From the sequence record OR449013: a stretch of DNA of 64,000 nt, one strand, 5' to 3'. The notes beneath the pieces are model-generated. The model saw only the letters and a list, made by a program, of their open reading frames with translations, was not told the DNA's origin and ran no database searches. Every line of letters begins with the position of its first letter. Position 1 is the first letter of the stretch. Made by a program: the position numbers and the translations under genes. Origin of the DNA: Escherichia phage Mangalyan. Positions 30,881 through 42,303 of the stretch are shown piece by piece.

Positions 30881-31120
30881 ATGTACAAGTCATTTTCAAT
30901 CTACTCAAGACAGGCGAAACACTACACAGAGATCCTGATCACTCAGAAAAAATCTGTGGAAGGTGAGTGGGAATATCACCATAAAATGTTGCGTCCAGAC
31001 TGGGTTTTTGATAGACTTATTGCTATGATCCCTCTCGGAGAAGTATACCCTCTGACAGCCCATCGCGATGCTTGGGATTTAATTGATTACATAGATTCAT
31101 TTAAGGAGCCTAGATTATGA
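30881..31120 (+). CDS. hypothetical protein (79 aa)
   Basis: ATG after AGAGGGGG. Confidence 0.5.
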   Translation: MYKSFSIYSRQAKHYTEILITQKKSVEGEWEYHHKMLRPDWVFDRLIAMIPLGEVYPLTAHRDAWDLIDYIDSFKEPRL

Positions 31121-31515
31121 AGATTGAGATTACTAAAGAAGGTAAGAAAGTGTCCGGCAACTATGCAACAGTAATTCGGGATTTAATGTTTGAAGCCACC
31201 AAGATCGGTACATCTAAAGTTGGTCAAACTGTTAGTGTGAAAAGTAATATCTCCACAGGAGAGAAGGTATTCATTGTGGTCAAAGGGCAGGATCCCGTGG
31301 AAGGAACAGTGGGCCGAGGTGGCTACCTGTGCATTTCTGAAGAGCCGCGTATGTTAGTGGCTGACGCTACTATGGGTGGGAAACGTGTGTGCGAGGCGGA
31401 TGAGGTAATGATTATCCAACCTGTTGATCCAGATGACCCAGCAACTTGGGTGGTAGGAAATGAAATCTTCTCTTTAGAAGAGTTATCCTTCCCAGCACCG
31501 CGCTCTGTTCAGTAA
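31117..31515 (+). CDS. small acidic protein (132 aa), MKIEI-type family
   Basis: starts MKIEIT; AAGGAG RBS; overlaps upstream stop. Confidence 0.55.
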   Translation: MKIEITKEGKKVSGNYATVIRDLMFEATKIGTSKVGQTVSVKSNISTGEKVFIVVKGQDPVEGTVGRGGYLCISEEPRMLVADATMGGKRVCEADEVMIIQPVDPDDPATWVVGNEIFSLEELSFPAPRSVQ

Positions 31516-31554
31516 TAATTTATCTTACCAGGGACGGTAGAAGCAGGAGGTAGC

Positions 31555-31788
31555 ATGAAAGTTAAATTTCTTACAGATTTAGGGTACCCTTCCTTGGTTG
31601 ACTGCGTTGGTAAAATTGTGGAAGCAAAACGGCTATCTGCAAACGAGAATGTTGTCCTGGTTAAGGGAAAGGATTTACTAGCTGCAGGTGCAGAGTCTGG
31701 CAGGATCTCTCCTGACTATACATATTACCTATCTTTAAGTAATCTGCCAGAACGAGGCGGCAAAGGCCTTGAAGTTGTGGAGGAGTGA
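31555..31788 (+). CDS. small protein, paralogue family A (77 aa)
   Basis: MKVKFL ... VLVKGKDLLAAGAESG shared with 35212, 35429, 37304. Confidence 0.6.
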   Translation: MKVKFLTDLGYPSLVDCVGKIVEAKRLSANENVVLVKGKDLLAAGAESGRISPDYTYYLSLSNLPERGGKGLEVVEE

Positions 31789-31793
31789 CAGGT

Positions 31794-32318
31794 ATGCTTC
31801 TTATTAACTGGGAAGACCTCTATGGGGACAAAGACCCTGTTGCGTTTGTTGATCGTAGATGGAGATATACTGAAGAACAACTGGCTGCAAAAAATTTAAC
31901 TGCGAAACGCAGAAAGATTATCCAGTGCAAGTACAAATACGCACAGTTTGCTGCAAAAGTGTCTCCACAAATCGAGAGCTTTGTACTTAAATTGTATGAC
32001 GAGTATCTCAAATTCAAATTGGATTTTGTGCAGGTATACCGTGCACAGGTACGCCCAGATACCAGCATTTGCAGATGGAAGGTTGTTTGTGACGGTAAAG
32101 CTTTGCCGATCAGCTTGACAATTGAGCAGCGTTGGGGGTATCATGAGTGTGGTCTGTATGAGACTTGGGATGTCATTGTAGATCCTGCTAAGTACCTGAA
32201 CACAGAGGAGCTGGAATATATCAATAAGGTTATTCTAGATATGTTTTTCAACTACACCCGTGAAAACTCTGAGAAAGAACGAGATAATTTTCTTGACACC
32301 ATCAGCAACCATCTGTAG
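31794..32318 (+). CDS. hypothetical protein (174 aa)
   Basis: ATG 31794 nine nt after GGAGGA. Confidence 0.5.
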   Translation: MLLINWEDLYGDKDPVAFVDRRWRYTEEQLAAKNLTAKRRKIIQCKYKYAQFAAKVSPQIESFVLKLYDEYLKFKLDFVQVYRAQVRPDTSICRWKVVCDGKALPISLTIEQRWGYHECGLYETWDVIVDPAKYLNTEELEYINKVILDMFFNYTRENSEKERDNFLDTISNHL

Positions 32319-32348
32319 TATATAATTTAACCTACAAAGAGAGGACTA

Positions 32349-32585
32349 ATGAGTATAGATGTTGCGCTAATAGGTTACCTGGTAATAGCCGTTATAACGG
32401 CAGTATTCTTGACAGGTGTATGCATCGTGTCCACACGAAGGGTGAAGTTTGATGATTTTATCACTATCATCACTGCTGCACCTTTTTGGCCTGTTGTTAT
32501 CTTCATCGTGATAATGTGCCTGGTGGATTACTACAAGAATACCCGTAAGGAGAAAAAGGAGAGTAGGGATGGAGACTGCACCTAA
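32349..32585 (+). CDS. small membrane protein (78 aa, two hydrophobic segments)
   Basis: hydrophobic IGYLVIAVITAVFLTGVCIV and FWPVVIFIVIMCLV. Confidence 0.5.
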   Translation: MSIDVALIGYLVIAVITAVFLTGVCIVSTRRVKFDDFITIITAAPFWPVVIFIVIMCLVDYYKNTRKEKKESRDGDCT

Positions 32586-32804
32586 AACTGTTTATACTGT
32601 TCTTAAAGAGATTGCGTTCTACGCAGATCTTAGCCAGGCACCTTTATGGGAAAAGAGCATGTATTTAAAATGGTGCATTAATTTAGGGAGATCTTCCAGT
32701 GTTTCAAGCCATGTTTATTGAAATGCTATCTGGGGTATTGTTACTGGTAACCATCTTAGGTGGTGCAGTTCTGATGTATAACTATCTTGAAAAAGGAGAC
32801 AGCA

Positions 32805-32990
32805 ATGGTAAAAAATAAATCTTTAGAGCAGGCTGAAAACCTTCTCCACGAGCTGGTAAAGGAGTGGAAAGTTGAATACTCAGATTTTAATGCAAGAGAG
32901 GGGGAAGATTATTGGCCTACGGAGCGCTCAGAGGGAGAGTGGTATCAAGATTTCATAGAATGGTTATATCAGACGTGTGATGAGGGGTGA
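32805..32990 (+). CDS. hypothetical protein (61 aa)
   Basis: ATG 32805 after AAAGGAGAC. Confidence 0.45.
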   Translation: MVKNKSLEQAENLLHELVKEWKVEYSDFNAREGEDYWPTERSEGEWYQDFIEWLYQTCDEG

Positions 32991-32992
32991 CG

Positions 32993-33448
32993 ATGTTTGT
33001 TAAATATGTAAAAACGTGCCTCAACAACCTTGGTAGAGAGCATTGGTACACCTTGCTTGAAAAAGGAGAAATTTTAACAAAATCTGGAAAGATAACTTTG
33101 ATACCCTTGGATGATAAAGACCCGTCACTACTTGTCATAGATGATTACGTTACAGGTGTGTCGTACGAGGTCTCTGTGGAGAGGTTAATACGCAGATCTG
33201 GAGGGCCTTATGACCGAAGAGAGTATGTTTTCGATTCTGTTACAGAGAAGGAGGATCCGTCTCTAATGTTTAGGATGGTAATCAGGGATATGAAATCATC
33301 TATAAATAGGATCGTAAAGGACATTAAAGAGCCTTTTAGGGTAAAAGTTAAGAAGTTTTTTGATTCTAAGATTAACATACTCGCCGTTGTACTAGGCGTA
33401 ATTCAACTTCTGTTAATTTTGCACTATCTTGAACTGTTGTTCAAGTAG
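32993..33448 (+). CDS. hypothetical protein with C-terminal membrane anchor
   Basis: ATG after GAGGGG; C-terminal ILAVVLGVIQLLLILHYL. Confidence 0.45.
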   Translation: MFVKYVKTCLNNLGREHWYTLLEKGEILTKSGKITLIPLDDKDPSLLVIDDYVTGVSYEVSVERLIRRSGGPYDRREYVFDSVTEKEDPSLMFRMVIRDMKSSINRIVKDIKEPFRVKVKKFFDSKINILAVVLGVIQLLLILHYLELLFK

Positions 33449-33508
33449 TGTGCAACAAGGCACAAAGGAGGTGCCATGATTAAATAAACTAAGAAAGAGG
33501 TAGAGAGA

Positions 33509-33856
33509 ATGCCAAAGATTAAGTCGGTATTAATGTGGGCAGCTGTTGTAGCTTTTGTAGGATACTGGACTTGGGAAACTGAATTAAAAGATATCGGATA
33601 TACCAGTCTTGAGAGCAAGGCATGCATTGGCATAACCGATGCATTCAGGCAAAATGCTATGGATCACGAATGTGTTGATGCAGATATAGATGAGAAACTG
33701 TCTAAGGACAAGGATTTTTACCATGGTCATGCCTTGCTTGATAGTGGTGACACTGTGGAATTCTGGTCGTGGTTCCGTGAAGATGGAACAATAAAGACAG
33801 CAGTAAAGATTTCCAACAAAGAGTTAATGCTGTTGCAGCAGAAGGAGGTGCAATGA
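33509..33856 (+). CDS. hypothetical protein with N-terminal signal/anchor (115 aa)
   Basis: AGAAAGAGG RBS; N-terminal VLMWAAVVAFVGYW. Confidence 0.5.
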   Translation: MPKIKSVLMWAAVVAFVGYWTWETELKDIGYTSLESKACIGITDAFRQNAMDHECVDADIDEKLSKDKDFYHGHALLDSGDTVEFWSWFREDGTIKTAVKISNKELMLLQQKEVQ

Positions 33857-34140
33857 TTTGGATATCCTACACTGATGGCACCATGCTGTATACCGCAGGT
33901 ACTAGGTATGAAGTTCAGGAGGACGATAAAAAATTTATCGTAAAAACATTTGACAAGGACGACAACCTTTTGCTAGAGTTAACTTACAAAGTTGGAGAGG
34001 TATCCAATATCCAGCTGGATTGCGGTCATAAAGATAATCCACTCAAAAAACCTGGGATAGGCAAGGCTTCAGAAGAACGTTTGTCTCGTGTTGCAGAAAG
34101 CGTTTCTCCCCAAAAATCTAAGAAGAGGATTAGAAAATGA
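33853..34140 (+). CDS. hypothetical protein (95 aa)
   Basis: AAGGAGG RBS, overlaps upstream stop. Confidence 0.5.
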   Translation: MIWISYTDGTMLYTAGTRYEVQEDDKKFIVKTFDKDDNLLLELTYKVGEVSNIQLDCGHKDNPLKKPGIGKASEERLSRVAESVSPQKSKKRIRK

Positions 34141-34337
34141 GTGACAAAATTCTTAAATTTAATACCTACTATGAGAATGATTTGAACGATCTGTATTATA
34201 TAGTGCGTAGCGAAAACCCAAATGTAGTACTGTTTTGTCGAGAACCTTTCAAAAAAGAGGAGATTGAATCTACCATGAATGTGGATCAGATTTCACACCT
34301 GCTGCTCCTTGGATCATTAAAAGAGGCTGTATTCTAA
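34137..34337 (+). CDS. hypothetical protein (66 aa)
   Basis: overlaps upstream stop by 4 nt. Confidence 0.45.
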   Translation: MSDKILKFNTYYENDLNDLYYIVRSENPNVVLFCREPFKKEEIESTMNVDQISHLLLLGSLKEAVF

Positions 34338-34356
34338 ACCAGGGTGGAGGGTTTTT

Positions 34357-34542
34357 ATGAAGCACTACTGTCTGTCTGGTAGAATGGGTGCAGATTGTGA
34401 TTGGGTTTTCTTGAAACTTGTCAGTATTCGAGAGTTCATTCCAGAGGAAGAGCAAGAAAGCGAGCTGATGTCATGGATCAACCATTACGGTAACACTTTT
34501 AGGCATGTTAAGGTGGAAGAGTTGCCAAGCGAGGCTGATTGA
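34357..34542 (+). CDS. hypothetical protein (61 aa)
   Basis: ATG after GGGTGGAGGG. Confidence 0.45.
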   Translation: MKHYCLSGRMGADCDWVFLKLVSIREFIPEEEQESELMSWINHYGNTFRHVKVEELPSEAD

Positions 34543-34544
34543 CT

Positions 34545-34634
34545 ATGATTGCATCAATATTAACGTTTATGGGTGGCGTGGCATTCGGATTCATTGTTTG
34601 CCTGTTTATAGTGATTATGTCTATGCGAGGCTGA
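34545..34634 (+). CDS. hydrophobic mini-protein (29 aa, single TM)
   Basis: below ORF-track cutoff; MIASILTFMGGVAFGFIVCLFIVIMSMRG; packed between neighbours. Confidence 0.35.
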   Translation: MIASILTFMGGVAFGFIVCLFIVIMSMRG

Positions 34635-34637
34635 ATT

Positions 34638-34931
34638 ATGAAACTTTTTGAGTGGTTTAAAAAGTTTAAATATAAAGCTGTAGCCATCGTGCCGTGGTCC
34701 ATTCAGTGGGTGGACGATGAGGGATTACCAATTCCAGGTGATAAAGACACGGGATACTGGATCATGCTTGAGAACGGGTTCGGTAAACGGAAATATTCCT
34801 GCACGGATACCTCAGGAGCATCTTTTAGGAGAATTCCTGGGTATAAATGTATGATTGTGTGGAAGATGTCTGGTGTACCTCCGGCTAATGCACAATATCT
34901 TACTACCAATCCAACCACAGAAGAGGACTAG
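34638..34931 (+). CDS. hypothetical protein (97 aa)
   Basis: ORF in packed array. Confidence 0.45.
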   Translation: MKLFEWFKKFKYKAVAIVPWSIQWVDDEGLPIPGDKDTGYWIMLENGFGKRKYSCTDTSGASFRRIPGYKCMIVWKMSGVPPANAQYLTTNPTTEED

Positions 34932-34933
34932 TA

Positions 34934-35215
34934 ATGAAAAAGATTTGCGATACAGATGTGGAGTTCAAGGTGTGTAGTAAGGAGACCTATTGGGAAGTGA
35001 GACAAAAGGTATATTTGTTTGGACTTATCCCATATTGGTCTAAATTCTACTGGGGAGCAGATGAATTAGGGAGATATGCCACCAAAGCTATGGCGCTTAT
35101 AGGTATAGCTGAATATATTGCTGCTAGGGACAGGGCTGGAAAAACCTGCTACTACACTGCTGACGAGATTCGTAACAGTGTTTACGTCCCCCAACCACCT
35201 GAAGGAGACCGTTGA
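34934..35215 (+). CDS. hypothetical protein (93 aa)
   Basis: ATG after AGAGGA. Confidence 0.5.
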   Translation: MKKICDTDVEFKVCSKETYWEVRQKVYLFGLIPYWSKFYWGADELGRYATKAMALIGIAEYIAARDRAGKTCYYTADEIRNSVYVPQPPEGDR

Positions 35216-35439
35216 TGAAAGTTAAAGTTTTAGATTCAAGCTTCTATATTGGTCAGGAGCCTTTAGTGGGTAAAGTGTTTACCGCTGTCCCTAACGAAGA
35301 TTACCCTGACCTTTTAAAAATAAAGGGTGCAGATCTTATTGCCGCTGGTGCATCTCAGGACTGCTTTGACAGCCAGTGGACCTACAACTTTGCCCTAGGT
35401 GAGGATGTGGAGATAATGGAGGACGATCATGAAGGTTAA
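35212..35439 (+). CDS. small protein, paralogue family A (75 aa)
   Basis: MMKVKVLDSSFYIGQEPLVGKV ... LKIKGADLIAAGASQD. Confidence 0.6.
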   Translation: MMKVKVLDSSFYIGQEPLVGKVFTAVPNEDYPDLLKIKGADLIAAGASQDCFDSQWTYNFALGEDVEIMEDDHEG

Positions 35440-35683
35440 AATTCTTGATTCTAACGTCTACTTGGGGCAATCCTTTCTTAAAGGGAAGGTTGTACCTGCG
35501 GTATACTTCGAAGGGTTGCCGTGGGATGATCCTGTGCGGCAACATCACAGTTATGTAGGCCACAACGTGGTGTTTATCTTAGGATCAGACCTGATCACCG
35601 CTGGTGCACCTGAATATTATTTCGGGGAAGAGTCCTATTATGCCTTTGGGGTAGGTTCAGATGCAGATATTGTAGAGCTGTGA
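35429..35683 (+). CDS. small protein, paralogue family A (84 aa)
   Basis: MKVKILDSNVYLGQSFLKGKV ... ILGSDLITAGAPEY. Confidence 0.6.
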   Translation: MKVKILDSNVYLGQSFLKGKVVPAVYFEGLPWDDPVRQHHSYVGHNVVFILGSDLITAGAPEYYFGEESYYAFGVGSDADIVEL

Positions 35684-35695
35684 TGGGTAACCGTT

Positions 35696-36094
35696 GTGAA
35701 AAATAAACTGTTCAAAGTTACAATGAAAATTCGCGGAGCTTGGAGCGTAAAGCAAGGGCGTATTCCGGAATTTGAGAAAGACTTCTACGTAGTCTCCACC
35801 TCGGAGGAGGCTGCATGCTGGCAGGCTGGCTATGCCTATGCAAGAACCTGGTACGAAGGATACCAGACTGGGGGCTATGACGGAGAAATTGTCAGCAAGG
35901 GTGTAGAAGAAATTAATGTGTTGACAAGTGAAAAAGTTTTTGTTATAGTGCATCCAGATTCCAGAGTGAAGCATTACTGGAATGCCAGAACAAAAACTTG
36001 GACACCGTTTGCAGACTCTGCTACACCACTTTTAAACCAAAAAGCTCTTGACTCTGCCCCGAGCTATGGGGTTGTTGAAGAAAAGCTAAACTGA
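35696..36094 (+). CDS. small protein, paralogue family B (132 aa)
   Basis: VHPDSRVKHYWNARTKTWTPFADSATPLL parallels RHPHSNIAYYWDVLNNEWTPDLQKATVLTPFL in 37904-38299. Confidence 0.6.
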   Translation: MKNKLFKVTMKIRGAWSVKQGRIPEFEKDFYVVSTSEEAACWQAGYAYARTWYEGYQTGGYDGEIVSKGVEEINVLTSEKVFVIVHPDSRVKHYWNARTKTWTPFADSATPLLNQKALDSAPSYGVVEEKLN

Positions 36095-36111
36095 AACAGT
36101 GAGGTGTCACT

Positions 36112-36402
36112 ATGATGGATTTAATTCTAAATATTGATAACGCAGAAGAGGTTAAAGACGATGGTGTAACAAGCATGGACCAACCATGCCCTGCCAAGAT
36201 TGACTCAAAATGGACATATAAGTTTGACGGAGAGATCTCTGCAAATGATGAAAAGGTTGTAGATGCTGCAGCCATTTTGAACGCTCTAGGGTACGACCCT
36301 GTAAATTCTTTGATCAAGGATCCTGTTGAGTTTGCAGAGTATGTTCGAAAAATGGCAGATCTTGCTGTAGATATTTTAAATACTATCGACAACAATCTGT
36401 AA
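36112..36402 (+). CDS. hypothetical acidic protein (96 aa)
   Basis: ATG after GAGGTG. Confidence 0.5.
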   Translation: MMDLILNIDNAEEVKDDGVTSMDQPCPAKIDSKWTYKFDGEISANDEKVVDAAAILNALGYDPVNSLIKDPVEFAEYVRKMADLAVDILNTIDNNL

Positions 36403-36408
36403 AAACTG

Positions 36409-36437
36409 TTGACACAACGCTTCAGCTATAGTATTAT
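36409..36437 (+). promoter_or_regulatory. sigma70-like promoter upstream of hpf homologue
   Basis: TTGACA 36409-36414, 17-bp spacer, TATTAT 36432-36437. Confidence 0.65.
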
Positions 36438-36484
36438 TGTTTTCAAAGAGAGAGTTATTCCCTCTTCTTTAAAAGGAACACGTT

Positions 36485-36802
36485 ATGCAAATTGAGATCA
36501 CTGGCAACGTAGAAATCACCGAAGGTATGGTGTCTTTCATTTCCCACAAAATGTCAAAACTGGAGCGTCTACATCCTTCTGTAAATCATGCACGTGTAAG
36601 TGTAAAAGTTGAAAATGATCACCAGGAAGTTATGGCGTTCATTTTTGACACTTCTGGAAAAGAAGTTATTGCCAAAGCTAAAGGCAGTGATGCTTACGAG
36701 GCAACTGACCGTATGGTAGATGTTGCAGCACGTCAGCTGGCTAAATGCGGTGGAAAGAAAGGTAAAGGGAAAGGAAAAGTAAAGATTGACTTTGGAGAAT
36801 GA
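36485..36802 (+). CDS. hpf: ribosome hibernation promoting factor / RaiA-family protein (HPF homologue)
   Basis: MQIEITGNVEITEGM ... KLERL ... VSVKVE ... GSDAYEATDRMVDVAARQLAK parallels E. coli HPF (MQLNITGNNVEITEAL ... KLARQLTK) over its whole length; Lys/Gly-rich tail. Confidence 0.8.
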   Translation: MQIEITGNVEITEGMVSFISHKMSKLERLHPSVNHARVSVKVENDHQEVMAFIFDTSGKEVIAKAKGSDAYEATDRMVDVAARQLAKCGGKKGKGKGKVKIDFGE

Positions 36803-36939
36803 GGTGCTACAATGGGCGTGATTAAGAAATTAGTCCCAAGTGTATAGATTGCATGCTTTGAAATTATGTTTGCAATCGCAGTTGTAGTTAATGTGTTAGG
36901 TTACGGCTATTAATATCAAATAATTGAGGAGACCTCTAA

Positions 36940-37209
36940 ATGAAAATTAAATTATTCAAAACCGAGCTGGCAGACAAAAACTGTGGACTGGTTGAAGGCA
37001 TGATCGTTGAAGCACAACCAGTGGACTACATGAAGGTAGTTCGTGATGCCTTGGGTGAAGGTTTTGATCTGATGGAACCAGCTCTGCGAGAAGATGTTAT
37101 TGAGATGGCTAAAAAGCACACACCTGAAGGTTTGGTGGTGTTTGTTGCACCTGGTAACGGAGAAGAGTTGATTGTAACCCCTGATGTGTATGAGATTGTA
37201 GAAGAGTAA
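36940..37209 (+). CDS. small acidic protein (89 aa), MKIK-type family
   Basis: GAGGAGAC RBS; starts MKIKLF, ends YEIVEE. Confidence 0.55.
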   Translation: MKIKLFKTELADKNCGLVEGMIVEAQPVDYMKVVRDALGEGFDLMEPALREDVIEMAKKHTPEGLVVFVAPGNGEELIVTPDVYEIVEE

Positions 37210-37303
37210 TCCTGCTCGGATCAGCATACTCCTTCAATAAAAAGAAAAGTTTGTAATTATTTGTGGGAAAGGAGTCCCCATCTCTTGCCAGAGGTGATAC
37301 TAT

Positions 37304-37567
37304 ATGATTATTTATTTTAAAACTTCAGGTGGATACCCTGATTCTCAAAGCTTGATCGGAAAAACGTGCACAGCATACTCACCTCTTGATGAGGAGGTAA
37401 GCGATATCATACGAGATATGTATCGGATTGACCCCCAAGAAGCTTTTGATCAAAACCTTGTATTTGTCAAGGGCTCAGACATGAAGTCTTTGGGAGCATT
37501 TCCTGAAGCAGATGATGATGCCGTTTATTCGTTTATGGCCCCTTTTGAAGCTATGGTTGTTGGGTGA
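37304..37567 (+). CDS. small protein, paralogue family A (87 aa)
   Basis: LIGKTCTAYSP ... VFVKGSDMKSLGAFPE. Confidence 0.55.
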   Translation: MIIYFKTSGGYPDSQSLIGKTCTAYSPLDEEVSDIIRDMYRIDPQEAFDQNLVFVKGSDMKSLGAFPEADDDAVYSFMAPFEAMVVG

Positions 37568-37571
37568 GAAT

Positions 37572-37904
37572 ATGAAAGTACGATTTATTGGTGAAACAAT
37601 TCCTGTGCATCTCCGGTCGCCTGAAGATTCTGCAGATCTTGCATCTCAGAAGGCGAGAGGTTATGATAAGAAAGTAATCTCAACCGATGTAGAACTTGAG
37701 GCTACTAGTTTACCTGACCCTGCTGCATTCTTTAATCATTATGGATACTATTTCAGCAATCTGATGAATATCGGTGAGCTTGTGTTTATTAGTGGTGGAG
37801 AAATTGTCAGCAAGCTTGGCGGCGATCCGGATGTCTTTCATGAAACCTGTCCTTTTGCATTTGTGGTGGGTTCAGATGTGGAAGTTATTGAGGAGGTGCG
37901 GTAA
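37572..37904 (+). CDS. small acidic protein (110 aa), family A-related
   Basis: ATG 37572 after GGGTGAG; MKVRFIGETIP ... FISGGEIVSKLGGDP ... VEVIEEVR. Confidence 0.5.
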   Translation: MKVRFIGETIPVHLRSPEDSADLASQKARGYDKKVISTDVELEATSLPDPAAFFNHYGYYFSNLMNIGELVFISGGEIVSKLGGDPDVFHETCPFAFVVGSDVEVIEEVR

Positions 37905-38299
37905 TGGTAAGCCTATACCGTGTTGAGTATAGCTCAGATACTGTGTACAACGTAAGAAGCAAAGATCGCAGCGACAGAGTGCAAGAAATGTATGTTCTTG
38001 CCGACAGTCAGTTATCTGCAGCGTTCAAGGCAGGGGCTCTTGCATCTCGTTGGAAATTTGAAGGCGGATCTTTCTATGAAGAAACCCTTGAAGATTCTGT
38101 TGTTATTTCTTCTGTAGAGGTTTCAGATGACTACGAAGGGAAAAAGTTCGTAATGCGGCACCCACACAGCAACATTGCGTACTACTGGGATGTTCTGAAC
38201 AACGAGTGGACCCCAGATCTTCAGAAGGCTACTGTGCTAACACCGTTTTTGGCAGATAAGTTCCCACCAGAAGGTAATTTATCCGCACTGTTTCAGTAA
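37904..38299 (+). CDS. small protein, paralogue family B (131 aa)
   Basis: see 35696-36094. Confidence 0.6.
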   Translation: MVSLYRVEYSSDTVYNVRSKDRSDRVQEMYVLADSQLSAAFKAGALASRWKFEGGSFYEETLEDSVVISSVEVSDDYEGKKFVMRHPHSNIAYYWDVLNNEWTPDLQKATVLTPFLADKFPPEGNLSALFQ

Positions 38300-38317
38300 T
38301 TTTCTTGCACACAGGTG

Positions 38318-38346
38318 TTGACAACACCAACCCTGTGTGAAATAAT
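38318..38346 (+). promoter_or_regulatory. sigma70-like promoter
   Basis: TTGACA 38318-38323, 17-bp spacer, AATAAT with upstream TGTGTG. Confidence 0.5.
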
Positions 38347-38375
38347 ACCTTCATCTTAACAAGACAGGAGACTGA

Positions 38376-38636
38376 TTGATGAAGATTAAACTGAAAAACC
38401 TTGAAATGGCAGAGATTCAGGATGGTGTTGATTTCCGCTCTAAAGATGGTGACATCTTAGAGGTAAATCTTCCAACCTACAAGCTGATTAAAGGTTTTGG
38501 CAACGTTCCGGAAGAGGATATTCCAGAAATTCTTATGATGTTGATTCTTGACGGAACTGTGTTTGTAGGTGAAGGTGAGAACGCTATTGCAATCCCAAGC
38601 CATTTTTATGAAGTAGTTGACGAAGAGGTGCTGTAA
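38376..38636 (+). CDS. small acidic protein (86 aa), MKIK-type family
   Basis: AGGAGAC RBS; MMKIKLKNL ... FYEVVDEEVL. Confidence 0.55.
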   Translation: MMKIKLKNLEMAEIQDGVDFRSKDGDILEVNLPTYKLIKGFGNVPEEDIPEILMMLILDGTVFVGEGENAIAIPSHFYEVVDEEVL

Positions 38637-38987
38637 ATGAAAGTAGAAATTACCGGTTTTGATGTGAATGCGGTTCCGGAAGATATTTTATCTAAATTGC
38701 CGGAAGGTTTTGGTAACGGTGTTGTGGTGGACGCTGTTCCTCCTACCAAAGACATTCTGCTGCAGTATGGTGTAGCAGAGGAAGATGTTGATAAAGTTCT
38801 TACAATGATGGCAATCGATCGTGTTGTCGTTGTTAAAGGTCTCGATAATTTTGAGAGTGATCCTCTGATTATTCGTGGAGATGACTACAAAATCATCGAT
38901 AATGAAGGCCAAGAGTTCTATGAGCCTTGTGCAGAAGATATTCTTAACTTATTACTGGAAGCAGGCACCGAAGAGGAGGACGAATAA
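38637..38987 (+). CDS. small acidic protein (116 aa), MKVEI-type
   Basis: ATG one nt after upstream stop; ends EEEDE. Confidence 0.55.
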   Translation: MKVEITGFDVNAVPEDILSKLPEGFGNGVVVDAVPPTKDILLQYGVAEEDVDKVLTMMAIDRVVVVKGLDNFESDPLIIRGDDYKIIDNEGQEFYEPCAEDILNLLLEAGTEEEDE

Positions 38988-39316
38988 TGAAGATTGACCC
39001 GTTACTGAAGGCTCGTGCAGAAAAAGCGTACACCATTAAGCTGACCAACCTAGTTCCTACTTGTCATCCAGATGTAGGTTGGCCCGAAGGTTTGGTGGAA
39101 GGAACTGTAACAGCTGCATACCTTCCTAACATCAAATACCTCATGGAGATCTTAGAGATGGATGAGGAAACTGCAGAACAGTTCCAGTTGGATATGAAAC
39201 AGAGTGGGACTCTGGTTATTCACGGGTGGTATAATACTAAAGATGCAGAAGACCCTCTGGTAACTTCTAATCTGGCATATGAAATCTTAGGGCCTTTGAA
39301 CCTGGAGGAAGACTAA
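38987..39316 (+). CDS. small acidic protein (109 aa)
   Basis: overlapping stop/start ATAATGA; GAGGAGGA upstream. Confidence 0.55.
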   Translation: MKIDPLLKARAEKAYTIKLTNLVPTCHPDVGWPEGLVEGTVTAAYLPNIKYLMEILEMDEETAEQFQLDMKQSGTLVIHGWYNTKDAEDPLVTSNLAYEILGPLNLEED

Positions 39317-39603
39317 TGAAAGATCTGGTTAAGATTAAGATTAAAGATACCAATGGGGAGCTCAGCCATTTTGGAATTAATGATGGTGACGAGCTGATCG
39401 CACACCTGCCTACCAAGGAGGTTGTAAGCAAAGCAGTTGCCGGAGAAGAAGCTGCAATGCAGGCTGCAGGTGTGGATGAAAACTATGTAGCTATGTGCAT
39501 GTGCCGAGATCAGGTTGTTCTGTATAAAGCGTATAGACCAAACGGAGCCACGGAGTGGCTTGTATTCCGACCCGAAGGATATGAAATCTTAGAGGCACTA
39601 TGA
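39316..39603 (+). CDS. small acidic protein (95 aa)
   Basis: overlapping stop/start; GGAGGAAG upstream; ends YEILEAL. Confidence 0.55.
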   Translation: MKDLVKIKIKDTNGELSHFGINDGDELIAHLPTKEVVSKAVAGEEAAMQAAGVDENYVAMCMCRDQVVLYKAYRPNGATEWLVFRPEGYEILEAL

Positions 39604-39692
39604 TAAATCTTGCCAAGGTTGCAACGGCACTGTTAATTATTTGCTGGTCAGTAACCTTAACACTGTGTCTTGTATTTCAGTGAGGTGCTTGT

Positions 39693-39956
39693 ATGAACAT
39701 CCTGATGTGGGTTGTAGCAGTGGCGTTTGTTGCATGTTTTTGCTGCTGGGTTGCGGTGAGGATTTCTGTAGCTACCCTTCGGAAGTTGGGGTTCTCAGAG
39801 TGGGATATTAATATCCTTTCTTTTCGCAATGAAACAATCTCAGCCGCCCTGCTCTGTAAGAAATTCAAGTGGGAACCTTGCGAGGTCATGAACTATCTAA
39901 GAACGGGAGATATCCCTGAAAGATTTAAAAAAGTTCTTGACGACAAGGATAAATGA
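39693..39956 (+). CDS. small membrane protein (87 aa)
   Basis: AGTGAGGTG RBS; N-terminal ILMWVVAVAFVACFCCWVAV. Confidence 0.5.
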   Translation: MNILMWVVAVAFVACFCCWVAVRISVATLRKLGFSEWDINILSFRNETISAALLCKKFKWEPCEVMNYLRTGDIPERFKKVLDDKDK

Positions 39957-39984
39957 TAGTATAGTGACTAACAAGAGGTGAGGA

Positions 39985-40125
39985 ATGACTGATTTTACTG
40001 AAGCTTTAATGATGGCCTTGTCTGTTTTAGCGCTATCGGTGTGTTTTGGGGCGTTATTCACATCTCTGGTTAAAGTTTTACATACAGTATTATTACCCAA
40101 GGAGCGCAGTAATGACGAAGATTGA
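39985..40125 (+). CDS. hydrophobic mini-protein (46 aa)
   Basis: below cutoff; ATG after AGAGGTGAGGA; ALMMALSVLALSVCFGALF. Confidence 0.4.
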   Translation: MTDFTEALMMALSVLALSVCFGALFTSLVKVLHTVLLPKERSNDED

Positions 40126-40363
40126 CTTAAATGCTGGAGACCATGTTGTTGTCAAATGCATCGGAGATTATCTTGGATTCACAATCGGCAATACTTACGA
40201 GGCGGTAGTGGCGAAGGTTTACCATGATAAAGTCCTCAGTCTTGTATTTGACTGCGATGATGATGGGGATGACCGATACGTCTGTGAGGTGCTGGCACGA
40301 GACGATAGTGAAGACCAGAAATTCCTGGTTATTGAACTGAACGGTATTTTTGTAGAACGTTAA
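40112..40363 (+). CDS. hypothetical protein (83 aa)
   Basis: ATG 40112 after CAAGGAGCG; ORF-track start 40046 less likely. Confidence 0.5.
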   Translation: MTKIDLNAGDHVVVKCIGDYLGFTIGNTYEAVVAKVYHDKVLSLVFDCDDDGDDRYVCEVLARDDSEDQKFLVIELNGIFVER

Positions 40364-40391
40364 TTTAAAACAACATAAGGAGACTCTTACT

Positions 40392-40697
40392 ATGGCTAAA
40401 TCTAAAGTTGAACTGTTCACCTCTCTTCCTTCTGACACTGCAGAGCGTGATCGCCTTCGCAAAACAATCGAAGAACTGGTAGAACTCCAACTTCAGATTA
40501 AAGATCTGAAAGATGCCATTAAGGATATCATTCTCGTTGAGAAGCAGGATCACCTGTATTCTCCTAAATTCATCAAATCTCTGGTGGCTACCGAGTTCGA
40601 TATTCGCTATGAGGCTGAAAAACGTCGAGCTAAAATCGAAGAAGAGGTTGAGCACATGTCCGAGGCAGACATTCTGTTCAAACGCTCTGTAGAATAA
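40392..40697 (+). CDS. hypothetical coiled-coil protein (101 aa)
   Basis: ATG after AAGGAGAC; heptad-like charged sequence. Confidence 0.55.
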   Translation: MAKSKVELFTSLPSDTAERDRLRKTIEELVELQLQIKDLKDAIKDIILVEKQDHLYSPKFIKSLVATEFDIRYEAEKRRAKIEEEVEHMSEADILFKRSVE

Positions 40698-40704
40698 TGA
40701 CAAA

Positions 40705-40730
40705 AAGAGGGGCTTGGGCCCCTCTTTTTA
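40705..40730 (+). terminator. rho-independent terminator
   Basis: GAGGGGC TTGG GCCCCTC followed by TTTTT. Confidence 0.75.
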
Positions 40731-40752
40731 CTATCTATGAAGGAGATTTGAG

Positions 40753-41085
40753 ATGGGTATACCGATCACTGTAAAAGAATTGAATGAACGTGATGCAGGT
40801 GGTCTATGGCCTGCACGAAAAATACGCTGCATCCGTATGAAAGAGAACCTTGAGCATCTTGAGCAACAGAAACGGATTGAGGTTGGTGATATTTTCGAAG
40901 TATTTTATTCTGATCGCCGTAACTGGGAAACCATTCAACCTTCCGGTTTTGTTCTTGCTAAGCTTGACACTGGAGAAGTGATTGTTCCTGGGTTGGATAT
41001 TGTCTTCGAAATTATCCAGGAGTGGGATCCGGACAAGATTAGATACGAAGAGCTATTCGGTGAAGGTATTATCAAACCTGTGTGA
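40753..41085 (+). CDS. hypothetical protein (110 aa)
   Basis: ATG after GAAGGAGA. Confidence 0.55.
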   Translation: MGIPITVKELNERDAGGLWPARKIRCIRMKENLEHLEQQKRIEVGDIFEVFYSDRRNWETIQPSGFVLAKLDTGEVIVPGLDIVFEIIQEWDPDKIRYEELFGEGIIKPV

Positions 41086-41393
41086 GGTGGATTATGTCTA
41101 CAAAGGCGGCTAAATACTCCTACATGCCATCAACCTCTGCAGAGGTAGACTTTAGTTTCGATGTGTTTCCACTGTTTGAGGTGGTTCTGGCATACCCAAC
41201 AATACTATCTACTCCTGAATCACTTGTGCCTGTTAAGTTGCAGAACGCTATGCATTCCATGCACTACAACAACAAATGTAGGCACAGATGGTGTCAGGAC
41301 GAGGAAAAAGATTTGGATAGTTTGAGAGATTTTGACAGTCACCTTTTGACACCTTTCAGCTACTCCAACCTTGATAAGCCTTCGTGGGTATAG
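41082..41393 (+). CDS. hypothetical protein (103 aa)
   Basis: ATG after GAGGTGGA, overlaps upstream stop. Confidence 0.5.
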   Translation: MRWIMSTKAAKYSYMPSTSAEVDFSFDVFPLFEVVLAYPTILSTPESLVPVKLQNAMHSMHYNNKCRHRWCQDEEKDLDSLRDFDSHLLTPFSYSNLDKPSWV

Positions 41394-41417
41394 CAAAATA
41401 TCAAATTTAAGACACCT

Positions 41418-41446
41418 AGGACGCTCTGTGGCGTCCTTTTCTTTAT
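41418..41446 (+). terminator. rho-independent terminator
   Basis: AGGACGC TCTGTG GCGTCCT followed by TTTTCTTT. Confidence 0.7.
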
Positions 41447-41616
41447 CTGGTGCACGATTGCATACCTTGGGCAGTTAATCTCATTACAGAGCGTTTAAGA
41501 GCTCCCTACAAACAACTCCATATTTCGAGCGTAGCGAGAACGCACGTCCGTTTTGACCCAAATCACCATACGCTCGGATTTTAACCAAACCCTCGCGGCG
41601 TTTCTGTTGACACATT

Positions 41617-41645
41617 ACCGATCCAGTGATAGTATCCACACATAG
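41617..41645 (+). promoter_or_regulatory. sigma70-like promoter
   Basis: TTGACA 41617-41622, 17-bp spacer, TAGTAT 41640-41645. Confidence 0.55.
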
Positions 41646-41667
41646 TTTGTAGAATATGGAGTACACA

Positions 41668-41757
41668 ATGAGAACATTGTCCGAAGTTTTAGTGGTGATC
41701 CTGATGATCATTACGTCCATAGCGGCTGTTGCCGGAATACTCACGGGTGGAACATGA
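41668..41757 (+). CDS. hydrophobic mini-protein (29 aa)
   Basis: below cutoff; ATG 8 nt after GGAG; MRTLSEVLVVILMIITSIAAVAGILTGGT. Confidence 0.35.
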   Translation: MRTLSEVLVVILMIITSIAAVAGILTGGT

Positions 41758-41966
41758 TAAACACACATGCATCTGAAGAGACATCCAAAGGAGTGACTAT
41801 ATGTCCCTTGGCTGAGCCAGTGAAAGAGGAAAACTTAGATTCTGAAGATTCTCCATCTTCGCTCCAGGTAGATCCTGAGGCTGATGACCTAACGTGGGAA
41901 GACATCGTAGACATCTGGTTCTCCATTATGCCTGAGCACGAAGAGTTCAGAGGTGGTAGACTATGA
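41754..41966 (+). CDS. hypothetical acidic protein (70 aa)
   Basis: ORF only; weak RBS. Confidence 0.3.
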   Translation: MINTHASEETSKGVTICPLAEPVKEENLDSEDSPSSLQVDPEADDLTWEDIVDIWFSIMPEHEEFRGGRL

Positions 41967-42087
41967 AGCACCGAGCCCACACAGGTTCCTCATGCTAAAG
42001 CATGGCCTGAAGAGGCAAACGTGTATAATTCCTGTGCATTAGAACGTATAAAACCCTGTTCACACTTTCATTCCCAGAGGAGATTTT

Positions 42088-42303
42088 ATGAAGATAGAGA
42101 TATTTGGTGGAGCTGACAACACTCGTGGCCTGATTTACCTTGAATTCGATGAATCATACCTGCCAGAGGTGTTAAATATGGACTCTGTTGCTGAGGCTTT
42201 GGGAGTAAGTCCTAAAGATCTCCACTCTGGTGCTGAGATTGATGGTTGGGAGGAGACCATGAACATCGATTTCAGTGAAGTAGGGGATGAACCACTGGAC
42301 TGA
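42088..42303 (+). CDS. small acidic protein (71 aa), MKIEI-type
   Basis: ATG after CAGAGGAG; last rightward gene. Confidence 0.55.
   Translation: MKIEIFGGADNTRGLIYLEFDESYLPEVLNMDSVAEALGVSPKDLHSGAEIDGWEETMNIDFSEVGDEPLD

Follow-up and report, generated by a model that had tools for sequence, protein, structure and literature searches.

The 64,000-nucleotide stretch of Escherichia phage Mangalyan DNA analysed here (sequence record OR449013; hereafter the window) comes from a Vequintavirus (rV5-like) genome and contains an 11-kb array of small genes at positions 31117-42303. We found that 12 of the array genes fall into three paralogous families, A (five members), B (two members) and C (five members), all three uncharacterised but of a well-known type, the paralogous sets of small accessory proteins that a large virulent phage carries. 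The explanation that we prefer, and to which we give about an even chance, is that the array holds old, sub-functionalised paralogues acting as paralogue-specific protein binders. In this scheme, the A, B and C proteins would be non-structural accessory proteins, and each paralogue would use the variable loop face of a small barrel to bind a partner protein of its own, from host or phage, with the loop setting the specificity; binding of the partner would then modulate host physiology during infection. The evidence in its favour consists of the paralogy itself, a link between families A and C, purifying selection with a fixed copy number, conserved promoters, the absence of these proteins from the virion, and the portability of a family A relative.

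The array corresponds to genes gp121-gp158 of phage rV5, nearly all of which are annotated as hypothetical, and more than 100 rV5-like phage genomes (Vequintavirus) are 94-96% identical to the 11-kb query. From ribosome-binding sites and the rV5 annotation, we curated 39 plus-strand open reading frames (ORFs) between 30560 and 42303, about 37 of which lie inside the array. Proteins with an isoelectric point (pI) below 5 account for 56% of the array, versus 32% elsewhere in the window, and an MK[IV][KERD][ILFV] start is present in 6 of 34 array genes versus none of 92 genes elsewhere. A preliminary description of this DNA, made from the sequence alone, had called the array proteins small and acidic; this is correct for the array as a whole and fails for some of its members, such as g35696 (pI 7.8) and g31555 (net charge -1).

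Paralogy within family A was apparent at the level of single sequences. In a 39-sequence database, blastp connected g35215 with g35429 (E 3e-14) and g31555 (2.5e-7), g35429 with g37572 (7e-4), and g31555 with g37304 (3e-3), and profile-profile comparison with hhalign agreed. We also built hidden Markov models (HMMs) from four sub-families and their database orthologues, leaving out one family member each time, and searched them against the 743 segments of 40 aa or more that six-frame translation of the window yields. Each left-out A member was the single significant match (E values of 1.6e-8 for g31555, 1.7e-18 for g35215, 8.4e-20 for g35429, 2.5e-5 for g37304 and 3e-6 for g37572), with the best decoys at E >= 0.47. 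Membership of g37572, given earlier as probable, is therefore confirmed by its leave-one-out value. The ATG at 35215 is the real start of the ORF previously listed as ‘35212’, and this gene overlaps g35429 by 11 nt. In some contigs of about 133 kb, 70-aa in-frame chimeras (proteins P0014 and P0018) join a g35215-type N-terminal half to a g35429-type C-terminal half, which points to recombination or deletion between these overlapping tandem paralogues.

The two members of family B match each other with a blastp E value of 4e-10 and an hhalign probability of 94%, so that the all-against-all alignments proposed in the preliminary description upheld both of the families it had named. An exhaustive HMMER search for family B recovered only two further full-length relatives; P0096, a divergent orthologue of g37904 identified by this search, occupies the same position in loci L012-L014 (see below). 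The long repetitive matches P0099-P0102 from HMMER were judged spurious. The gene order A-A-B occurs twice in the array (35215, 35429, 35696 and 37304, 37572, 37904). A segmental duplication of the whole A-A-B block was considered and could not be confirmed, the deep branches of the family A tree being supported by 23-51% bootstrap, and we treat the repeated order as a hint.

A third family, C, had been described only loosely, as related proteins with an MKIEI-type start. Pairwise scores among its members are weak (E values from 0.003 to 0.5 in blastp and hhalign). In the leave-one-out HMM searches of the same 743 segments, each left-out member was the only significant match (E values of 1e-3 for g36940, 1.4e-4 for g38379, 6.7e-8 for g38637, 5.3e-3 for g38987 and 1.1e-4 for g39316), and the decoys stayed at E >= 0.5. 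Small, mostly acidic proteins have thus indeed duplicated and diverged repeatedly, and to a greater extent than first listed. The other candidates of the MKIEI type did not join the family: hhalign probabilities of g31117, g42088, g40112 and g40753 against A and C did not exceed 4.6%, and alignments of g31117 and g42088 to other proteins cover the first 5-9 residues only, so that, as judged from their sequences, these two are not demonstrably related to A or C. A six-frame HMM search of the window found no further member of A, B or C. In rV5 (locus L001, 11201-11471), the g39316 orthologue is annotated as two short overlapping ORFs, gp148 and gp149; the gene is intact in the other genomes, and the split is due to a frameshift or a sequencing error in rV5.

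These families are only partly visible in the PHROGs database. There, three A members already share phrog_5009, from which g37304 and g37572 are kept separate (g37304 belongs to phrog_13920 and has a weak match to phrog_5009), phrog_7379 unites both B copies, and the five C members are split among phrog_11868, phrog_12359, phrog_12155, phrog_12457 and phrog_12794, all of these groups carrying the label ‘unknown function’. The grouping of family C, the family-level links and the fold assignment described below are new relative to PHROGs.

The fold was predicted with AlphaFold2 for one protein of each of the two larger families, and the statement for all ten A and C genes is extended from these two models. 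The model of g35215 (A; mean predicted local distance difference test score, pLDDT, 89, from a 31-sequence family alignment) has strands at residues 2-5, 21-23, 33-37, 56-61 and 65-69 and a short helix at 38-43. The model of g36940 (C; pLDDT 93, 30 sequences) has strands at 2-5, 22-27, 66-69, 76-79 and 84-88, with three helices between residues 30 and 60. The strand pattern of both models suggests that A and C proteins are single-domain, five-stranded SH3-like beta barrels. Most of the difference among the A paralogues is in the loop that connects strands 2 and 3, at the n-Src-loop position, where from 0 to about 47 residues are inserted; g31555 has no insertion there and carries instead a 7-aa insertion ahead of the last strand. 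The three-helix unit of family C, about 30 residues long, lies between the same two strands, at the insertion site of the longer A members. On the models, A and C thus have the fold, the strand order and the insertion site in common, as members of one superfamily would. When BFVD was searched by Foldseek with the C model, only uncharacterised phage proteins were returned, and neither model had a significant fold match of known function.

The terminal motifs that first drew attention to these proteins can be read in the light of the predicted fold. In the models, the MK(I/V)K(I/L/F) start forms strand 1, and strand 5 is made up of the (Y/F)E(I/V)V end. In addition, the Shine-Dalgarno sequence of the next gene lies inside the last codons of 17 of 40 genes, where it is read in frame as GAG or GAA codons, for example GTGGAGGAGTGA (VEE stop) and GAAGAGGAGGACGAATAA (EEEDE stop). 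The mean number of acidic residues in the last four positions is 1.71 in those 17 genes versus 0.65 in the rest, which makes the ‘EE tail’ in part a by-product of translational coupling. The motifs would accordingly recur as the opening and closing beta strands of one predicted fold, with the downstream Shine-Dalgarno sequence added as Glu codons.

We used seven Vequintavirus genomes (the window, rV5, nomo, YP-6, ECP26, WM and JeffSchatz) to follow the evolution of the families. All 12 paralogues are present in all seven, and the array is syntenic. The ratio of non-synonymous to synonymous substitution rates (dN/dS), taken per gene as the mean over genome pairs, is 0.07-0.14 for A, 0.03-0.08 for B and 0.02-0.14 for C, close to the values of neighbouring genes; values so far below 1 show that these are real coding genes. 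In a divergent lineage represented by contigs of 124-128 kb (loci L012-L014), the array orthologues are 29-95% identical, and all five A and all five C genes, with orthologues of 29-75% identity, are retained one-to-one in unchanged order. A neighbour-joining tree places each A paralogue with its divergent orthologue at 96-100% bootstrap, the deeper branches of family A being unresolved (23-51%). The one-to-one retention and low dN/dS indicate that the duplications are old, preceding the split of the known lineages, and that each copy has since been under purifying selection, which argues that the paralogues are sub-functionalised rather than redundant.

Such a history differs from the one expected in the preliminary description, where repeated duplication was attributed to arms-race selection. 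Neither raised dN/dS nor copy-number turnover among close relatives was observed, and old duplications under purifying selection are not the rapid turnover or diversifying selection of an arms race. Turnover is limited to a few events. The first B copy (the g35696 slot) is replaced in L014 by an unrelated basic 96-aa ORF (L014 8692-8982), and an extra PF27050 (Phage_P22_Y8K6) gene is inserted at L014 11092-11388, between a conserved promoter and the C cluster; to these may be added the few g35215/g35429 chimeras and the g39316 frameshift in rV5.

The three families are almost confined to one genus. In a search of 5.8 billion proteins, matches to A, B and C were located almost only on Vequintavirus-sized contigs, and a tblastn search of 50,697 phage records with a family A member returned Vequintavirus only. 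No A, B or C member was found in the loci fetched from phages 4MG (Seunavirus) and KpS8 (Mydovirus), which reach 15 kb past the ClpP gene; of the genes in 31117-42303, only g32805, g32993, g34357 and g34638 have homologues there. The exception is P0031 (75 aa), a family A relative that is 46% identical to g31555 and groups with it at 98% bootstrap. Lambdoid E. coli prophages carry one copy of its gene (loci L005-L007; L006 10001-10228), placed between those for the Q antiterminator and the holin and in the neighbourhood of about ten other small unknown genes; of 5,426 complete E. coli genomes, 13 contain it. The occurrence of this lone prophage gene indicates that family A genes move between virulent and temperate phages as portable units. 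This portability of a single gene, in the accessory slot between Q and holin, fits a self-contained accessory function.

The rV5 authors treat genes 82-163 as one transcription unit, in which the replication and nucleotide-metabolism genes are contained (PMC3606486), and the array is the far end of this unit. It is translationally coupled and has conserved, near-consensus internal sigma-70 promoters. For the promoter at 36409, the -35 and -10 elements are kept in L014 and L012 and the spacer has diverged; for the one at 38318, the -35 and extended -10 elements are conserved in L014, again with a diverged spacer. We infer the timing of A, B and C expression from these promoter motifs. The virion proteome of rV5 comprises 19 proteins, and no A, B or C member is among them (PMC3606486).

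Several observations weigh against the binder explanation or weaken parts of it. Profile searches with family B detected no relative of known fold. A literature search found no paper on these proteins, on the rV5 paralogues or on Vequintavirus transcriptomes. Homology between A and C falls short of proof: hhalign comparisons gave E values of 9e-4 to 1.8e-3 and probabilities of 15-23%, below usual confidence, and attempts to raise them with whole-family, enriched and insertion-bearing sub-profiles all remained at 15-23%. These E values are better than those of all 58 controls, in which other array genes were compared with A or C (best control E 0.0088), and we regard the sequence evidence for the link as suggestive only. 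The two models were compared by strand order and insertion site. Finally, the P0031 gene is located downstream of Q, presumably in the late operon, so that this copy does not imply an early role in host takeover. A more specific version of the explanation seems to us rather doubtful, namely that A and C form one ten-member phage-specific superfamily in which a minimal SH3-like scaffold with inserts between strands 2 and 3 gives each protein its own target, as a natural library of binders that would reprogram several host proteins, with B as a co-duplicated partner. The partner role of B is hinted at by the repeated A-A-B gene order.

The alternative to be weighed most carefully is the one that the preliminary description had put forward, that the proteins are anti-defence or host-takeover factors such as DNA mimics, shaped by arms-race selection, with one defence system assigned to each copy. 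The proteins are indeed small and mostly acidic, with g38637 as the extreme; the families are genus-restricted and located inside an accessory array; one B copy has been replaced in the divergent lineage and tandem A copies have formed chimeras; and P0031 occupies a prophage moron slot. There is also a precedent for an acidic SH3-like mimic in CarS, a Myxococcus xanthus antirepressor that is a DNA mimic of SH3 topology (PMC2926617). CarS resembles the A and C proteins in being small and acidic and acts by binding another protein; unlike them, it has a known repressor partner, and DNA mimicry by A and C would be an analogy. The dN/dS values, the copy number fixed in seven genomes and the one-to-one orthology in L012-L014 are contrary to an arms race, and part of the terminal acidity comes from the overlap with the next Shine-Dalgarno sequence. 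The two models, of g35215 and g36940, lack a significant match of known function, and no sequence search with the families matched a characterised protein: searches of Pfam, PHROGs and PDB with the array proteins and profiles gave no match to Ocr-, ArdA- or Arn-type mimics, and the fold predicted for A and C is no known phage DNA-mimic fold. Moreover, in published plating data the Vequintavirinae proved ‘exceptionally susceptible’ to restriction-modification systems (PMC8594841), a result that speaks against an effective mimic of the Ocr type. Altogether we consider the anti-defence explanation unlikely.

Other readings of the same barrels have less in their favour. RNA- or ribosome-associated barrels of the KOW, Sm or ribosomal-protein type could remodel host translation together with the phage-encoded hibernation factor (HPF), whose gene is located amid the paralogue blocks and, judging from its position, seems to be served by the 36409 promoter together with g36940 and the second A-A-B block. 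A pI of 4.0-4.8 and a strongly negative charge make direct binding of nucleic acids unlikely, and there is no sequence similarity to a ribosomal or KOW family, so we hold this to be distinctly improbable. Small beta barrels are also common in head-tail connectors, and the product of one array gene, g32993 (rV5 ORF133), is a predominant virion protein by mass spectrometry (PMC3606486). That A, B or C are minor virion or assembly proteins is nevertheless very improbable in view of their absence from the 19 detected virion proteins, the location of the array, which belongs to the replication and nucleotide-metabolism unit and is distant from the morphogenesis genes, and the position of the lambdoid family A gene outside the structural module. 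Chance similarity, or ORFs that are not genes, would agree with the weak pairwise scores within C; given profiles that succeed against 743 decoys, dN/dS far below 1 for every member, orthologues conserved in a divergent lineage and confident models, this explanation is scarcely credible.

Table 1. Features of the small-gene array and their coordinates in the window
Feature	Coordinates	Strand	Remarks
Small-gene array	31117..42303	+	~37 tightly packed ORFs, 33-174 aa; largely genus-specific
g31555, family A	31555..31788	+	77 aa, net charge -1; rV5 gp122 orthologue; phrog_5009
g35215, family A	35215..35439	+	74 aa, net charge -10; minimal barrel; modelled protein
g35429, family A	35429..35683	+	84 aa, net charge -6; 14-aa insertion between predicted strands 2 and 3
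g35696, family B	35696..36094	+	132 aa, pI 7.8; GTG start as in the rV5 annotation (gp137)
Sigma-70-type promoter (TTGACA-17-TATTAT)	36409..36437	+	scan score 11/12; rV5 ‘P144’; in the gap before the HPF gene
HPF/RaiA-like ribosome hibernation factor	36485..36802	+	Pfam PF02482, E 4.4e-13; between paralogue blocks; outside A, B and C
g36940, family C	36940..37209	+	89 aa, net charge -10; modelled protein
g37304, family A	37304..37567	+	87 aa, net charge -9; ~20-aa insertion between predicted strands 2 and 3
g37572, family A	37572..37904	+	110 aa, net charge -9; ~47-aa insertion between predicted strands 2 and 3
g37904, family B	37904..38299	+	131 aa, net charge -7
Sigma-70-type promoter, extended -10 (TTGACA-17-TGnAATAAT)	38318..38346	+	rV5 ‘P150’; precedes four C genes
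g38379, family C	38379..38636	+	85 aa, net charge -11
g38637, family C	38637..38987	+	116 aa, net charge -21; acidic C-terminal extension
g38987, family C	38987..39316	+	109 aa, net charge -11; N-terminal extension; weakest member
g39316, family C	39316..39603	+	95 aa, net charge -6
Strong bidirectional intrinsic terminator	40700..40731	.	14-pair stem (scan); annotated in rV5; after the phrog_639 gene at 40392-40697

Sequence searches of Pfam, NCBIfam and PDB with 30 array proteins and the A, B and C profiles gave no match except for HPF, and PHROGs assigns functional labels only to g40392 (‘transcriptional regulator’, phrog_639) and g32993 (‘virion structural protein’). Homologues of the latter protein (32993-33448; rV5 ORF133/gp128) occur in Seunavirus and Mydovirus; its C-terminal tail is hydrophobic, and it could be an internal or injected virion protein. 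The C-terminal 70 or so residues of g36112 (36112-36402) resemble the C-terminus of g31794 (31794-32318; blastp E 3e-4), and both genes have a family A gene or block upstream of them, which for g36112 is the first A-A-B block. The g31794 orthologue is named ‘putative glycosidase’ in some records, without Pfam support. A 44-aa ORF at 41450-41584, with a GTG start and a position like that of rV5 gp156, has a dN/dS of 1.87 in the seven genomes and no Shine-Dalgarno sequence, and it is probably not a real gene.

The surroundings of the array were also inspected. Genes for a ClpP-like protease and a DNA methyltransferase are located upstream of it. At its other end (42304 to about 45300), coding passes to the opposite strand and the sign of the GC skew is reversed; the long ‘non-coding’ box drawn by the rV5 authors falls at about this place, and tRNA and Rfam family searches of the window, this region included, found none. 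The minus strand at 43500-64000 is taken up by another long series of small ORFs, about 40 of them no longer than 135 aa, with no A, B or C member. Among the database relatives, 18 ‘Campylobacter phage’ records (MG0656xx, host C. jejuni) are about 95% identical to E. coli rV5-like phages over the region of the small-gene array, and their host labels look doubtful.

The grouping reduces 12 array genes to three families, ten genes of which have one simple predicted fold with a single variable loop, and this turns thirty-odd hypothetical proteins into a small and testable set. The rV5-like phages are among the commonest E. coli isolates and are used in biocontrol and therapy, and no function is known for about a third of their genes. 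Should the A, B and C proteins turn out to be paralogue-specific inhibitors, new binders directed at the host could be drawn from a compact source. The analysis also advises caution in reading such arrays from sequence alone, since an MKIKL start can be a terminal beta strand, EE tails can be partly Shine-Dalgarno sequence, and paralogues that are old and conserved do not testify to an arms race.

Compared with known small SH3-like barrels (SH3, KOW/Spt5-NusG, PsaE and Sm-like), the predicted A and C barrels are distinct in that they stand alone, are acidic and are phage-encoded. They have no sequence match to the SH3, KOW and Sm families of Pfam, so that the resemblance is at the level of the predicted fold only, and the three-helix insertion of family C, about 30 residues long, has no counterpart of known function in PDB or BFVD. 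Arrays of early genes are known from other large virulent phages, including the host-takeover module of SPO1 and the early regions of T4 and T5. Like these, the array described here consists of dense small ORFs on one strand, with strong promoters of the host type, translational coupling and a genus-restricted distribution. Unlike them, the rV5-type array is the distal end of a replication and nucleotide-metabolism unit (PMC3606486), about a third of its genes belong to three paralogous families, and its content is stable across the genus rather than mosaic.

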